Positions 36,803 to 57,967 of a stretch of 64,000 nucleotides of DNA are shown here, piece by piece. The translations under genes and the position numbers were made by a program. Each line of letters starts with the position of its first letter. Positions within the stretch are counted from its first letter, which is position 1. Location of the stretch: positions 7,539-71,538 of the IMG/VR virus record IMGVR_UViG_2974520824_000001; one strand, given 5' to 3'. The notes beneath the pieces were generated by a model. It made no database searches. It was not told where the DNA came from and worked only from the letters and a program-made list of their open reading frames with translations. The DNA is from a virus.

Positions 36803-36834
36803 GGCCAGTCTCGGGGGTCTGGCCGAAACCTTTT
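36803..36834 (+). terminator. possible terminator hairpin directly upstream of tRNA-Gln
   Basis: GGCCAGTC-TCGGGG-GTCTGGCC then GAAACCTTTT. Confidence 0.35.
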
Positions 36835-36905
36835 GCCCTGTAGTGTAATTGGCAACACTTGGGACTTTGGTTCCCACATTTCAGGTTCGAGTCCTGGCAG
36901 GGCAG
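36834..36905 (+). tRNA. tRNA-Gln (anticodon UUG)
   Basis: Full cloverleaf: acceptor TGCCCTG/CAGGGCA, D-arm GTGT-AATTGGCA-ACAC, anticodon arm TGGGA-CTTTGGT-TCCCA (U33, UUG, R37), T-arm TCAGG-TTCGAGT-CCTGG; 72 nt, no encoded CCA. Confidence 0.85.
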
Positions 36906-37062
36906 CGATCCCACGCTTTTGAAGGGAGGATAGGCAGACCCGATGGGCTGAGAACGTCCCTTGGACGTAAAACTTAACTTTTGCGCGAACACCATGTGAG
37001 GCAGTAAACCGCAATCCGGCTCTGCGGTAAGGGAAATGGATCACCCTTGAGAAACCGGCCAA

Positions 37063-54242: not shown

Positions 54243-54396
54243 GCGGCTTGCCAATTCGGACGCTGAACGTGAGCCGAACTTTCACATGCTGGTGGAATTC
54301 GCACGTTGGTTCAGTGAGCACAAAGTTGAGACTTTGGGCCGAAGCTACGGAAATATCGTGGATCGATTCATCACTGAACGTCGGTCGAACATCTAG
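54208..54396 (+). CDS. hypothetical small protein (start uncertain)
   Basis: Downstream part of track ORF 54070. Confidence 0.25.
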   Translation: MLRCSDSPEAIERLANSDAEREPNFHMLVEFARWFSEHKVETLGRSYGNIVDRFITERRSNI

Positions 54397-54508
54397 TGTT
54401 TGCTGGAACCGCTCACCCCAACATCTAGTGTCCTTGTCTACCAGGGCATTTGGGTGTAGGGTGGGTGGTTCCGGCCCGACGTAATCCTTTGCGCCAGTTA
54501 GGAATTCG

Positions 54509-57223
54509 ATGGCTTTGAATCAGCCGCGTTCAATCAACTCCACTAGGCCGTTTCATGCGACGGCACGCGAATATGTTCAAAAGGGTTGGGGCGTACTGCC
54601 TTTGCCCGAACGCAGGAAAGAATACCCTCCCGTAGGCTTCACCGGTCGTGCCGGTCGATTTGCGACAGAGGATGATCTAAATGAGTGGCTTAACCCCAAT
54701 GGCGCATATGTCAAGGGCAACATCGCTATTCGAGTCGGAAATGTCATCGACCTCAAAGGCGTTCGTCATGAAGTCATTGGGATTGATGTCGACGCACATA
54801 GCGGAAAGCGCGGCGCTCGCGATTTGGCGCGTCTTGAAAAGAAGTGCGGAAAGCTCCCCGCCACATGGACTTCCAGTTCTCGCACTGATGGAGTATCTGG
54901 AATCCGATTTTACCTCGTTCCCTACGGCTTTGGATTTAGAGGCCAAGCGTCAGACTGCATCGATATTGTTCAGCGCGTTCATCGATATGCCGTTGTTTAC
55001 CCCTCTTGGCATCCCGAAACCAAAGCCCAATACTTTTGGTATCCTCCTGGGGAATCCCCTGACGGCCAAGGATTTTCGACAGACATTCCTAAGGCAGCTA
55101 CACTTCCGCTGCTTCCCGATGCATGGATCGATGAACTTACCGCTAACCGGCAACAGGATACAGATGGTCAGTACGGCATAGACCTGGATTCAACACCGGA
55201 TGAGCTAAAGGCTTGGCGCGCAAAGGTTTTCAATCCCGATATCCCCGATGAGGTCGGGGGAATGTGCCCGCTCATGCGGAAGGCAGTTGAACGCCACATC
55301 GAAAAGATTGAGTCGTCACCGAGCAATCACGACAAAATCACTCGCGCTCACCATTCGCTGTTAAACCTTGCAGCAGAAGGACATTCGGGAATCTCTAACG
55401 CGATTCAAGAGGTCGAAGCGGTTTGGCTCAAGGATATCAAGGCGAAAGCCAAACGGCCCGAACACATGGTGAAGCGTGAAATCACGCGCAGCTATTGGGG
55501 CGCACTGCGAAAGCTCAAGGCTAAGGCCGATGGTTTCAAAGAGCTTGGGCTGCAACTGTTTTCGGCTGAATGCTGTATTTTGGATAAGGACTGGCAGAAG
55601 CCACCGTCACCGGCGGGGAAAGATGACCGACACTGGATCGACACAATACCATTCGACAAGTCCGTTCCCCCAAGGGAATTCGATTGCAATGATGTCAGCC
55701 AGGCTCACCACTTTCATGATCGAGTGGGGGACAATGTTCGATACCTCAATGATTATAACGCTTGGCTCCTTTACGATGGGAACACTTGGCACATAGACGA
55801 TTTCACGCTAGTTCGTGACCTATTCGATAGGTGCTGTGTTCGACCGTCTCGCGGTCAGGCATTCAAATTGCAGAAGAAACTAGCCGAGCATATGACGCAA
55901 GGCGGTTCAGATTCCGATAACATCGGTGCGCCGTTAAAGCGTGATGCCGCAAAGCTTTTCAAGGTTTCGGACACGTACCGCAATGACCCGAAAATCAAGG
56001 CCATGCTCAATTGCATGAAGTCGATCCCCGGTGTCGCGATGCGCTATTCCGAATTGAATTGGGACGCAACGATTCTCGCGATGCCCGATGGCAACTGCCT
56101 GAAATTGGATGAGCCGAAGTCAAAGCCTGACCCAAAAGCTAAGGGGTTCACTGTTGTTGAAAACGAAAAGCAGTTCTACACGACGATGGCGACGAAAGTT
56201 GAATACCGGCAAGACATTTCACGTCGAGAAATCCAACTCTGGTCTGACTATCTCGACCTTTTTCTGCCAGACGCAGATTACCGTCGCTTTGTTCAAAAAG
56301 CGTTGGGCTACATACTTATTGGTGGCAACCCCGAAAAGCTCGCGCTGTTTCTGGTGGGACAATCGAATACTGGTAAATCCACGATGCTTCAAGCGATTCA
56401 AGGTGTCCTAAATGACTATGGCGCAACGTTTCAGCCGTCTGCGGTTTTCAAAGACGCTGGAAGTGGTCTTAACCCGGAACTCGGGAACCTACTACATAAA
56501 CGCGGTATCTTTTCGAGTGAGTCTGGGTCGCAGAGAATTTACGCTAATCCGCTTAAGAGGAATACGGGTGGAGACAAGATTTCTGTTACCCGTAAGTACG
56601 CCAACGACCAAATCGTCGGGATTCCTCAATTCACCCCTGTTGTTGCAACTAATCAACCACCAACGATCGATGATGCGGACGAGGCGCTAGTCAAACGAAT
56701 CTTGGTGCTGCCCTTCACAACTCGCGTACCTGAGAATCAGAATGACAAACGAGCTGATGTCACTTTGGCCCGAGACGCTAAGCACGCGATTTTCAATTGG
56801 CTGGTGCATGGGTACAAAAGGTATGTGCGCGAAGGACTTTCGCACGATACATGGCATCCGTGGTCGATTGCTGCCACACTCGAATTCGCTAGCGAACTAA
56901 GCGATGTTGCTACATTCCTGAGCGAAACCTGTACTGCCGCAGACGATTCGCTCAAGCAATTCCTGACGAGTGATGTTGTCACGCCGGAACATGAAGCGGC
57001 AGTTAAGGAGTGGTCGAAGGTTTCGGTCAATGGTCTCTATATGGCGTATCAACGCGAATGTGCTGAATCTGGTCAAACACCAATGGCGACAAGACTTTTC
57101 AGTAAGAAAGTCAGGCAGGTATTCGGCGTTACTACGATTCCTGTTCGTCGTGAGGGAAAGGTCGCGAAACACTACCTCGGAATCAAGTATCAAAATGAGG
57201 CATCGAACCAAATCACCACGTAG
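54509..57223 (+). CDS. bifunctional primase-polymerase (PrimPol-like N-terminus) / D5-P4-type SF3 helicase
   Basis: 904 aa; Walker A FLVGQSNTGKST in C-terminal half; N-terminal region typical of phage/plasmid primase. Confidence 0.7.
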   Translation: MALNQPRSINSTRPFHATAREYVQKGWGVLPLPERRKEYPPVGFTGRAGRFATEDDLNEWLNPNGAYVKGNIAIRVGNVIDLKGVRHEVIGIDVDAHSGKRGARDLARLEKKCGKLPATWTSSSRTDGVSGIRFYLVPYGFGFRGQASDCIDIVQRVHRYAVVYPSWHPETKAQYFWYPPGESPDGQGFSTDIPKAATLPLLPDAWIDELTANRQQDTDGQYGIDLDSTPDELKAWRAKVFNPDIPDEVGGMCPLMRKAVERHIEKIESSPSNHDKITRAHHSLLNLAAEGHSGISNAIQEVEAVWLKDIKAKAKRPEHMVKREITRSYWGALRKLKAKADGFKELGLQLFSAECCILDKDWQKPPSPAGKDDRHWIDTIPFDKSVPPREFDCNDVSQAHHFHDRVGDNVRYLNDYNAWLLYDGNTWHIDDFTLVRDLFDRCCVRPSRGQAFKLQKKLAEHMTQGGSDSDNIGAPLKRDAAKLFKVSDTYRNDPKIKAMLNCMKSIPGVAMRYSELNWDATILAMPDGNCLKLDEPKSKPDPKAKGFTVVENEKQFYTTMATKVEYRQDISRREIQLWSDYLDLFLPDADYRRFVQKALGYILIGGNPEKLALFLVGQSNTGKSTMLQAIQGVLNDYGATFQPSAVFKDAGSGLNPELGNLLHKRGIFSSESGSQRIYANPLKRNTGGDKISVTRKYANDQIVGIPQFTPVVATNQPPTIDDADEALVKRILVLPFTTRVPENQNDKRADVTLARDAKHAIFNWLVHGYKRYVREGLSHDTWHPWSIAATLEFASELSDVATFLSETCTAADDSLKQFLTSDVVTPEHEAAVKEWSKVSVNGLYMAYQRECAESGQTPMATRLFSKKVRQVFGVTTIPVRREGKVAKHYLGIKYQNEASNQITT

Positions 57224-57243
57224 CCAAAGGGATTCAAATGCTC

Positions 57244-57434
57244 GGTTACAATGTTTTCCCAGGTCAGAGCATGTGTGTAACTGTAACCGAAATCTCTGAG
57301 GTAGCTAATAGTGTGAGAGAGGTTGTGAGGGAATGTGATAACCCCGTCTAGGTAGGGGTCGTGAATTTCGCTCGGTTACGGTTACAGACCGCCTCCTACC
57401 TGCGAGGATCGTGTAACCGAACTGCTGACCTGGG
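57244..57434. repeat. iteron-like GGTTAC/GTAACC repeat cluster plus inverted 10-mer CCCAGGTCAG (candidate origin/regulatory region)
   Basis: Six GGTTAC hexamers in direct and inverted orientation plus CCCAGGTCAG and CTGACCTGGG 167 nt apart. Confidence 0.4.
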
Positions 57435-57437
57435 CTT

Positions 57438-57749
57438 TTGCAGAATCAACACCAAAATGAAAGGGAGACAATGGAATCCGATGAGAACGAGTCAGTTCGT
57501 AAAAAGATGTTCTGCATTCGATGCGGTGAGGAAATCCTAAGGCACGAACCATATTTCGCGATCCAAAAGGATATTCGTGCAGAGCGGTATTTCTTCCACG
57601 GTGACGAATTGCAGTGCGAGGCAATCCAATTGGCAAAGACCGCGACGTTCTGGCCTGCCAGTGGGAAGACCTGCCAGACATGGGAGCATTTCACTGACCT
57701 GCAAAAGAAAACGCTAATCGATTGGTGCCGAAAGGAATTGACGAAATGA
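57438..57749 (+). CDS. Cys-containing small protein
   Basis: GGGAGACAATG RBS; CIRCGEE. Confidence 0.4.
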   Translation: MQNQHQNERETMESDENESVRKKMFCIRCGEEILRHEPYFAIQKDIRAERYFFHGDELQCEAIQLAKTATFWPASGKTCQTWEHFTDLQKKTLIDWCRKELTK

Positions 57750-57967
57750 TGGGGCTACCGAACATCGACGTTCCGGCCATGATGCAGAAACTAGAGCGTG
57801 GAGTTGTCGCGCTGGAAAAGATTGCAGGCCAACAGAATTCCGGTGAATCAGTCACCGAAGCGCAATTGACCCGATGGTATCAGCGCACGATAGATGGTAT
57901 ATCGAAGAATGAGGCCCAAAGGCTAGCGCACGCAATGATTTTTGACTACGACGTGAAGGTGAAGTAA
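57722..57967 (+). CDS. hypothetical small protein
   Basis: ORF, 81 aa. Confidence 0.35.
   Translation: MVPKGIDEMMGLPNIDVPAMMQKLERGVVALEKIAGQQNSGESVTEAQLTRWYQRTIDGISKNEAQRLAHAMIFDYDVKVK

Follow-up and report, generated by a model that had tools for sequence, protein, structure and literature searches.

The DNA analysed here is a stretch of 64,000 nucleotides, hereafter the window, from IMG/VR record IMGVR_UViG_2974520824_000001. It is 100% identical to Mycobacterium phage Indlulamithi (MN585993 / NC_048824), with each window position equal to the Indlulamithi record position minus 7538. Our subject is a 247-bp non-coding gap at 57224-57470, between gp95, the presumed initiator, and the next gene, gp96. 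We conclude that this gap is probably a replication origin used by gp95, because of its synteny, the conservation of its motifs, the concerted evolution of its repeat arms, a conserved centre of low stability, the domain set of the presumed initiator, and close experimental precedents. The first-pass annotation of the window had proposed an iteron-type origin beside a primase-helicase gene, and that proposal gains support both from the conservation of the repeats and from an architecture like that of defined origins with superfamily 3 (SF3) helicase initiators.

A mirror-symmetric repeat module follows gp95

The repeat module begins ~19-20 bp past the gp95 stop codon (57221-57223). It holds five exact GGTTAC/GTAACC hexamers, at 57244 (+), 57283 (-), 57374 (+), 57380 (+) and 57413 (-). 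Six had been counted previously, but the site at 57277 reads GTAACT and is a one-mismatch copy. GGTTAC sites are common in the window (33, vs 14.1 +/- 3.8 in shuffles), and five of them inside 175 bp correspond to a Poisson P of ~2e-8, or ~8e-6 when corrected for window placement. The 8-mer TCGGTTAC is more concentrated still, with four of its five copies in the window falling in the gap (corrected P ~1e-9). The hexamer pairs 57244/57413, 57277/57380 and 57283/57374 share a single dyad centre at 57331.0. A 10-bp inverted pair reported earlier, CCCAGGTCAG at 57258 and CTGACCTGGG at 57425, is exact, and neither 10-mer recurs exactly in the window; GCTCGGTTAC and TGTAACCGAA are each present in two copies at a distance of 130 bp. 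The repeat cluster is real and mirror-symmetric, and chance is excluded.

The hexamers form the arms of two 49-bp inverted units, 57242-57290 and 57372-57420, which are 73% reverse-complementary over 49 nt. Each unit follows the same plan: an arm, ~10 nt, the core CAGGTCAG, ~8 nt, and one or more further arms. Repeat and composite-unit searches, together with the sequence itself, gave the following elements:

57232..57239, + strand: ATTCAAAT motif, directly 5' of the left arm
57242..57290, + strand: left unit, spacer type A
57242-57250, + strand: first arm of the left unit, TCGGTTACA, followed by the 9-nt spacer ATGTTTTCC
57260-57269, + strand: core of the left unit, CAGGTCAGAG, followed by 7 nt
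57277-57282 and 57283-57290, + strand: distal arms of the left unit, GTAACT and GTAACCGA
57291..57371, no strand: centre, the proposed unwinding element, 81 bp between the units
57372..57420, minus strand: right unit, spacer type B, inverted
57372-57379 and 57380-57385: arms of the right unit, TCGGTTAC and GGTTAC
57395-57402: degenerate core of the right unit, CCTACCTG (reverse complement CAGGTAGG), then the spacer CGAGGATCGT
57413-57420: last arm of the right unit, GTAACCGA
57425..57434, minus strand: extra (third) core copy, CTGACCTGGG, the exact inverted partner of 57258-57267, with CTTTTGC next

The left unit carries the core on its + strand and the right unit on its minus strand. Read on its other strand, the right unit runs TCGGTTAC, 10 nt, CAGGTAGG, 9 nt, GTAACC, GTAACCGA.

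The least stable 50-bp duplex, 57271-57320, reaches into the centre (z = 2.8, top 0.2% by nearest-neighbour calculation over the last 14 kb of the window). The centre also carries three + strand copies of TGTGA, at 57312, 57324 and 57334 (spacings of 12 and 10 bp), and a small hairpin, ACCCC/GGGGT, at 57341-57359. TGTGA[GT] occurs three times in the 247-bp gap vs 0.24 times per kb elsewhere, always on the + strand.

The module is conserved 3' of related primase genes

The same module is found in ~17 related phages. In a sensitive blastn search, the gap matched only non-coding DNA directly 3' of the primase/polymerase gene in Fowlmouth, MrMiyagi and Cuke, phages of differing genera with primases 66-67% identical to gp95. 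There the module comprises two left units, a ~100-bp AT-rich centre, one inverted right unit and an extra core, with arms and core as in Indlulamithi. Phage databases contain roughly 200 full-length homologs of gp95. A protein search of a large collection with full-length gp95 yielded a graded series of metagenomic relatives, and the twelve contigs examined (primases 41-65% identical to gp95) all carry the module 3' of the primase gene. The module is also present in the Gordonia phages Sampudon and GOATification and in DrLupo (Barnyardvirus), whose primases share 25-31% identity with gp95 over the alignment; DrLupo has one small gene between the primase gene and the module. The first-pass annotation had named repeat conservation as a check on its proposal, and conservation is what we find: three cultured genera and the 12 metagenomic relatives have the repeats directly 3' of the primase gene, and the repeats also follow the 25-31%-identical primases.

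Nearly all relatives have a non-coding gap of 100-611 bp past the primase gene with the same unit plan. Most units have 9-10 nt ahead of the core and an arm 8 nt past it, or 13-15 nt past it where the arm is a doublet. The core is nearly invariant, reading CAGGTCAG and often CAGGTCAGAG, and an extra core follows the right unit in most relatives, in the Indlulamithi orientation in P0002 and P0015 and in the opposite one in Fowlmouth, Cuke, P0012, P0014 and P0016. The arms come in about ten variants between lineages: GGTTAC in Indlulamithi, Fowlmouth, Cuke, P0004, P0005, P0009, P0016 and Sampudon; GGTTAG in P0012 and P0019; GGAAAC/TGAAACA in P0014 and DrLupo; and, elsewhere, CGGCTTCG, CGGAGTTA, CGGCCCA, GAGTAACA, CTTGTTACA and CGGTAAG. 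Within a genome, all copies use one arm sequence, and this holds even for tandem doublets and triplets, not all of which can pair.

The spacers behave differently from the arms. Most left units have GTTTTC(C/G) ahead of the core and most right units (C)ATCGTCG, that is, GTTTTCC vs CATCGTCG. Since these left and right signatures differ while the arms match, the two unit types are old paralogs with arms that changed in concert. The uniformity of arms within a genome, the unpairable tandem copies, the presence of units in both orientations and the short Cuke stems (5-6 bp) together favour recognition of the arm sequence in trans over pairing.

Of the 17 loci scored, nearly all have their centre at, or close to, the 50-bp segment that is least stable in the 5-8-kb locus, the exception being P0004. 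A whole-genome search found the composite unit confined to the module locus in the Indlulamithi, Fowlmouth and Cuke genomes. The individual words are also concentrated there: the module locus holds 4/5, 8/10 and 5/7 of the genome-wide copies of TCGGTTAC in Indlulamithi, Fowlmouth and Cuke, respectively, and 2/4, 4/5 and 3/5 of those of CAGGTCAG.

A pattern scan for TCGGTTAC-N5-20-CAGGTCAG returned 115 loci, and the 84 listed were single, apparently chance matches except for Cuke and a giant-virus contig with two matches. No relative came out of an IMG/VR scan with gp95, and when only the C-terminal 145 residues of gp95 were used as query, a word-based protein search was empty. The Rhodococcus phage CoffeeBean has no gap past its primase gene. 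In Adjutor (Cluster D), the last 427 bp of the record, past the primase/polymerase gene (4453-4879 of L128), contain scattered GGTTAC/GTAAC sites and a pyrimidine-rich CTAC-repeat centre that resembles those of Fowlmouth and Cuke, with no clear CAGGTCAG core. This region could be the module in a degenerate or diverged form.

Several shorter motifs accompany the module. (G)ATTCAAAT stands directly 5' of the left arm in Cuke, P0002, P0015 and P0016 as well. Tandem arrays of (A)GTGTGAG(G/T)G in 10-bp phase, without exception on the + strand, lie just past the primase stop codon in P0005, P0014 and P0012 (L133 4320-4380, L134 4200-4320, L137 4195-4330); the Indlulamithi centre has three copies (57312-57338), and Fowlmouth and Cuke have none. 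Fowlmouth and MrMiyagi carry ~200 additional non-coding bp with several ATTCAAA/TTGAATG copies in both orientations (L002 4230-4400).

gp95 combines primase and helicase domains with a predicted RFX-like winged helix

gp95 has two Pfam matches above cut-off, Prim-Pol (PF09250; residues 19-183, E 9.4e-17) and D5_N (residues 399-578, E 1.5e-9), and three under the curated cut-offs, DUF5906 (1.4e-5), RFX_DNA_binding (4e-5) and Pox_D5 (5e-4). The DUF5906 match, together with matches to poxvirus D5/E5 helicase in a sequence search of the PDB, marks an SF3 P-loop helicase at residues ~587-748, and the sub-threshold RFX_DNA_binding and Pox_D5 matches fall on residues 827-894. The corresponding features are:

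54509..57223, + strand: gp95, presumed initiator, annotated in GenBank as DNA primase/polymerase
56987..57190, + strand: region coding for the RFX-like winged helix (residues 827-894; AlphaFold2, Foldseek)
57131-57178, + strand: wing beta-hairpin of the gp95 winged helix (residues 875-890; AlphaFold2)

An AlphaFold2 model of residues 745-904, built with 38 homologs, has a predicted local distance difference test score of 89; residues 861-872 form a helix and residues 875-890 a beta-hairpin, the wing. The top Foldseek match was the RFX1 DNA-binding domain on DNA (1dp7; E 3.4e-4, template modelling score 0.81 on the target), with RFX5 also found, followed by Orc1/Cdc6 origin-binding winged helices and the C-terminal region of the NrS-1 primase-polymerase. 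From this model we are confident in predicting that the C-terminal domain of gp95 is a winged helix closest to the RFX DNA-binding domain. RFX domains bind GTNRCC(0-3N)RGYAAC, with the wing making major-groove contacts (PMC5752003, PMC2533330). The arms GGTTACC/GGTAACC would fit an RFX half-site, a match that is one of resemblance only.

We then compared the wing with the arms across 18 aligned primases. Most GGTTAC lineages have (K/Q/E)V(S/A/V)K.Y.G in the wing, and the GGTTAG lineages have KN(S/T)K.YLG; the GGTTAC-armed exceptions are P0016 (KLSRFYVG) and Sampudon (KNTKRYRG). In lineages with unrelated arms the wing is very different, even at similar overall identity. When regressed on the identity of the rest of the protein, the wing had the largest excess identity among same-arm pairs (+0.067, permutation p 0.018), a p value uncorrected for the eight segments and for phylogeny, with the Prim-Pol and linker segments also at 0.02-0.04. 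These comparisons are suggestive of a wing sequence that tracks arm class.

A possible route to initiation

In the origin reading, gp95 would be initiator, helicase and primase in a single protein. Its C-terminal RFX-like winged helix would read the GGTTAC/GTAAC arms on double-stranded DNA, three on each side and mirror-symmetric about 57331. Two helicase assemblies would then be loaded in opposite orientation, one to either side of the centre, and the duplex would open at the centre, where the low stability at 57271-57320 was computed. Finally, the Prim-Pol domain would prime on the exposed strands. The core CAGGTCAG is a candidate loading or priming signal because it stands exactly between inverted arms, on the + strand of the left unit and on the minus strand of the right unit. 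A unit could be folded as a hairpin or cruciform with the core in its loop, like the 40-nt ssiA/ssiB signals of RSF1010, and extrusion of a DNA hairpin or cruciform at the module may have a role.

A broader proposal, which we hold only tentatively and think may well be wrong, is that a large group of actinobacteriophages shares a two-part origin code, with the arms as a lineage-specific address and the core as an invariant start signal. As a whole it would have the arms read by the RFX-like wing and the start signal made of CAGGTCAG plus the flanking GTTTTCC or CATCGTCG spacer. The reader of the core would be either the Prim-Pol/D5_N part of gp95 or a factor of the Mycobacteriales host, and the core would serve as an ssi-like loading or priming site and as an operator of the primase promoter, with its arrays reused in unrelated phages such as Bantam.

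Observations that weigh against an origin

Several results count against the origin reading. First, the first-pass annotation had suggested a check by cumulative GC skew, and the curve climbs monotonically, without a sign change or minimum at the module; it rises genome-wide because all genes are on one strand. There is a local step in skew (3 kb right minus 3 kb left) at the module, upward as expected of an origin, which puts the module among the highest-ranking 2.4% of positions in Indlulamithi and 1.8% in Fowlmouth. In Cuke this step is weak (top 12.5%), the largest Indlulamithi step lies ~500 bp left of the module, inside the primase gene, and the local step could reflect the composition of that large gene. 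As support for an origin, the skew step is weak at most.

Second, the Indlulamithi centre (low-stability z = 2.8) is only moderately AT-rich, and much less so than those of Fowlmouth (z = 4.7) and Cuke (z = 5.3), and the geometry of the module is not rigid, with the arms of P0016 and P0015 oriented differently. The iteron hexamers of the earlier proposal are present but make up just one of three motif classes, and the most conserved element is the CAGGTCAG core, noted there merely as the 10-bp pair. To these is added the uncorrected wing statistic given above.

Third, the core may occur apart from gp95. Gordonia phage Bantam (NC_031074) has eight exact core copies in ~360 bp of its 1.5-kb non-coding right end (record 91,981-92,580, reverse complement, L130 1-600), six facing one way and two the other, most of them within a longer repeat, GAAAACCGC(N)TCTGACCTGCG. 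We found no gp95 homolog in Bantam 46,000-92,580 (46.6 kb, half of the genome), and its replication genes are of another type. Given these arrays and the lack of a homolog in the searched half, the core's reader may be a factor other than gp95.

A possible transcriptional control region

The best-surviving alternative, which we nonetheless regard as unlikely, is that the gap is a transcriptional control region with arms and core as operators for a phage regulator, possibly gp95, that governs read-through from the replication genes into the rightmost gene block (gp96-112) or a promoter of that block. The module does lie between two co-directional gene blocks, and a conserved T-run (TTTTTGCC / CTTTTGC) follows the last core. 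The Bantam core arrays, too, stand 5' of an operon and far from any gp95-type gene. In addition, a core-like box falls within a conserved promoter-like block 5' of the primase gene:

54434..54462, + strand: promoter-like block 5' of gp95 (TTGTCT, 17 nt, TAGGGT), presumptively tied to the module
54438-54445, + strand: core-like box CTACCAGG in the spacer of the promoter-like block

This block, in the gap at 54397-54508, is conserved before the primase gene in most relatives (L002 811-989, L003 825-1017 and the upstream gaps of L132-L143), with boxes CTGACCAG, CTGGTCAG or CTACCAG; a consensus promoter scan of 54300-54600 did not call it. The core-like box hints at autoregulation by whatever reads the core.

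Against transcriptional control, scans of 56800-57900 called neither a consensus promoter nor a + strand terminator, the sole terminator-like site being on the minus strand at 57859-57839, outside the gap. The simpler alternative raised in the first-pass annotation, that the region is just a promoter for gp96, is likewise without support, there being no consensus promoter in the gap. The motifs stand at a single locus per genome and not at several promoters, and that locus stays tied to the primase gene while the downstream genes vary. The low-stability centre, the mirror symmetry and the 6-11 sites exceed what an operator typically needs. A regulatory role would in any case be compatible with an origin role, and initiators often regulate their own genes.

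A possible structured RNA

Still less probable, in our view, is that the gap acts as a structured RNA in a polycistronic transcript, whether a hairpin for RNase III/E processing or stability, a terminator or attenuator, or a small RNA gene. As RNA the gap folds into a long rod (-83.4 kcal/mol, z = -2.9), and single-stranded DNA gives a stem-loop of 177 nt, closed by the two cores (z = -2.8); the underlying imperfect inverted repeat spans ~180 bp. Arm complementarity is kept through double changes at 9/9 stem positions, with 69.8% of cells paired vs 58.4% when shuffled, a result equally compatible with inverted binding sites or a hairpin.

The opposite strand of the gap folds equally well (z = -3.0), as a DNA palindrome would and a strand-specific RNA would not. 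RNAalifold found no consensus structure in the unit alignment, and Rfam, searched over 57100-57600 with E as high as 10, gave no match. Between the left and right units, the spacers are complementary at 7/17 positions, counted from the sequence, which is scarcely above chance; the long rod is therefore a by-product of the inverted units and apparently not selected. Cuke unit stems shrink to 5-6 bp, the uniform arms and tandem arm copies are not required by a hairpin, and with units in both orientations the core is in sense only in some. We thus rejected a long RNA hairpin as the selected feature, on the grounds of the non-complementary spacers, the equal folding of both strands and the lack of an RNAalifold consensus, and a strand-specific RNA function of the gap is unlikely.

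A possible DNA site of another kind

It is very improbable that the module serves packaging (as a pac site), partition (as a centromere) or recombination, or that it is what remains of a small mobile element with inverted repeats. Each unit does have terminal inverted repeats, centromeres and the sites bound by small terminase subunits typically consist of repeat arrays too, and the DrLupo module and Bantam array stand at the right end of the deposited sequence. Against this, 6.5 kb separate the Indlulamithi module from the end of its record, which opens at the terminase gene, no partition genes are annotated in the examined parts of the Indlulamithi, Fowlmouth and Cuke records, the units keep to one locus per genome with no sign of mobility, and the linkage is to the primase gene and not to terminase or recombinase genes.

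Neighbouring genes and other features

The gap had been given as 215 bp, with the downstream gene starting at a TTG at 57438. GenBank instead places the gp96 start at an ATG at 57471, preceded by AAAGGGAG, and the Cuke counterpart uses the equivalent ATG, so the gap measures 247 bp. The ATTCAAAT motif is met again where the next gene begins in many relatives, whose ribosome-binding site and start codon region there consist of GGAGATTCAAAATG. Every annotated gene in the last 15.6 kb of the Indlulamithi record is on the + strand in GenBank.

57460-57467, + strand: ribosome-binding site of gp96, AAAGGGAG
57471..57749, + strand: gp96, next gene and module boundary (GenBank annotation)

A Pfam search with gp96 returned no family. 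We also considered a small open reading frame over the left unit (ATG 57237, 38 codons) and rejected it, as its frame and length vary among Indlulamithi, Cuke, P0002 and Fowlmouth. Neither an Rfam family nor a conserved open reading frame nor a consensus promoter accounts for the gap region. Cuke gene 108 (43 codons, L003 4129-4257), which overlies the right unit of the Cuke module, is probably not a real gene.

At gathering thresholds, the sole Rfam match in the whole window was a tRNA-Gln (anticodon TTG) at 36834-36906, which is also the sole RNA gene found there. The equivalent tRNA in Fowlmouth and Cuke comes after a ~265-codon gene annotated as a serine integrase.

Comparison with defined replication systems

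By description, the closest system is that of the staphylococcal pathogenicity island (SaPI) origins, in which 6-12 penta- or hexanucleotide iterons lie immediately 3' of rep and flank an AT-rich centre, at least two to a side, with the two sides oppositely oriented (PMC9371898). SaPI Rep, a self-loading SF3 helicase, uses its C-terminal winged helix to read the iterons, and in some islands a primase is fused to it (PMC9371898). The likeness to Indlulamithi would extend to an initiator with an SF3 helicase and a predicted C-terminal winged helix, to five exact hexamers and a near copy in 57244-57418, the first ~20 bp past the stop codon, and to three sites on each side of a low-stability centre that point in opposite directions. 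Yet the matches of gp95 in the PDB sequence search at E up to 1 include no SaPI Rep chain, its primase is a Prim-Pol of archaeo-eukaryotic type, and Indlulamithi is a complete phage of Mycobacteriales, not a satellite. Its iterons are also embedded in 40-49-bp units around the CAGGTCAG core and accompanied by TGTGAG repeats, neither of which features in the SaPI description used.

In protein architecture, pRN1 ORF904 is closest, with the same domain order as gp95: Prim-Pol, SF3 helicase and C-terminal winged helix. The pRN1 origin is a ~100-nt stem-loop downstream of orf904 with an integrity that is needed for replication, and the same downstream arrangement has been reported for phages BIP-1, BPP-1 and BMP-1 (PMC4234260). 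The ~180-bp imperfect inverted repeat of Indlulamithi could be compared with this stem-loop (z -2.9 as RNA, -2.8 as DNA), except that its spacers are non-complementary and its conservation lies in short motifs. Short repeats dominate in Indlulamithi, whereas pRN1 has no iterons (PMC4234260), and the middle domain is pRN1_helical there but D5_N in gp95; the pRN1 host is archaeal.

The P4 alpha protein joins a primase of the bacterial Toprim type and an SF3 helicase to a C-terminal winged-helix origin-binding domain that reads origin repeats (PMC4234260). Several gp95 relatives are named 'P4 family phage/plasmid primase' in databases, but the gp95 primase is a Prim-Pol and not a Toprim, and the P4 origin-binding domain is not among the top structural matches of the gp95 C-terminal domain. 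The P4 iteron is an octamer found in two separate regions, ori and crr, unlike the composite unit at a single Indlulamithi locus.

In RSF1010, ssiA and ssiB are two inverted 40-nt hairpin signals on complementary strands, which the AEP-like (archaeo-eukaryotic primase-like) primase RepB' reads after unwinding (PMC8567376). The Indlulamithi units are of similar size (~40-49 nt), inverted and hairpin-capable with a conserved core, and the ssi signals serve as the model for a reading in which the units would act as single strands. RSF1010 differs in using three proteins (the initiator RepC, the helicase RepA and the primase RepB') and in keeping its iterons separate from the ssi signals, and there is no sequence similarity. 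In the core origin of SV40 and polyomavirus, the SF3 initiator large T antigen reads inverted GAGGC pentamers set one base apart and flanked by easily melted DNA. The adjacent GTAAC-T-GTAAC and GGTTAC-GGTTAC of Indlulamithi resemble these pentamers, but the SV40 pentamers sit next to each other at the centre instead of bracketing it, the origin-binding fold is another one, and the virus is eukaryotic. Compared with SaPI, pRN1, P4 and RSF1010 as described, the Indlulamithi element is distinct in having composite units around an invariant core, in two facing paralogous types.

Significance

Literature searches on Indlulamithi, Fowlmouth, MrMiyagi, mycobacteriophage origins and origins 3' of primase genes returned nothing on this element, and to our knowledge origins have been mapped for very few actinobacteriophages. 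If the origin reading is correct, it would provide a precise origin and a candidate initiator-DNA recognition pair not just for Indlulamithi but also for phages of the Fowlmouth and Cuke types, the Barnyard-type DrLupo, Lambovirus phages of Gordonia and a large number of uncultured relatives. Nature's own range of arms, paired with wing variants, would then be a ready-made experiment on the evolution of initiator specificity. A defined origin and initiator would also be useful for phage-derived replicons and for the engineering of therapeutic mycobacteriophages.

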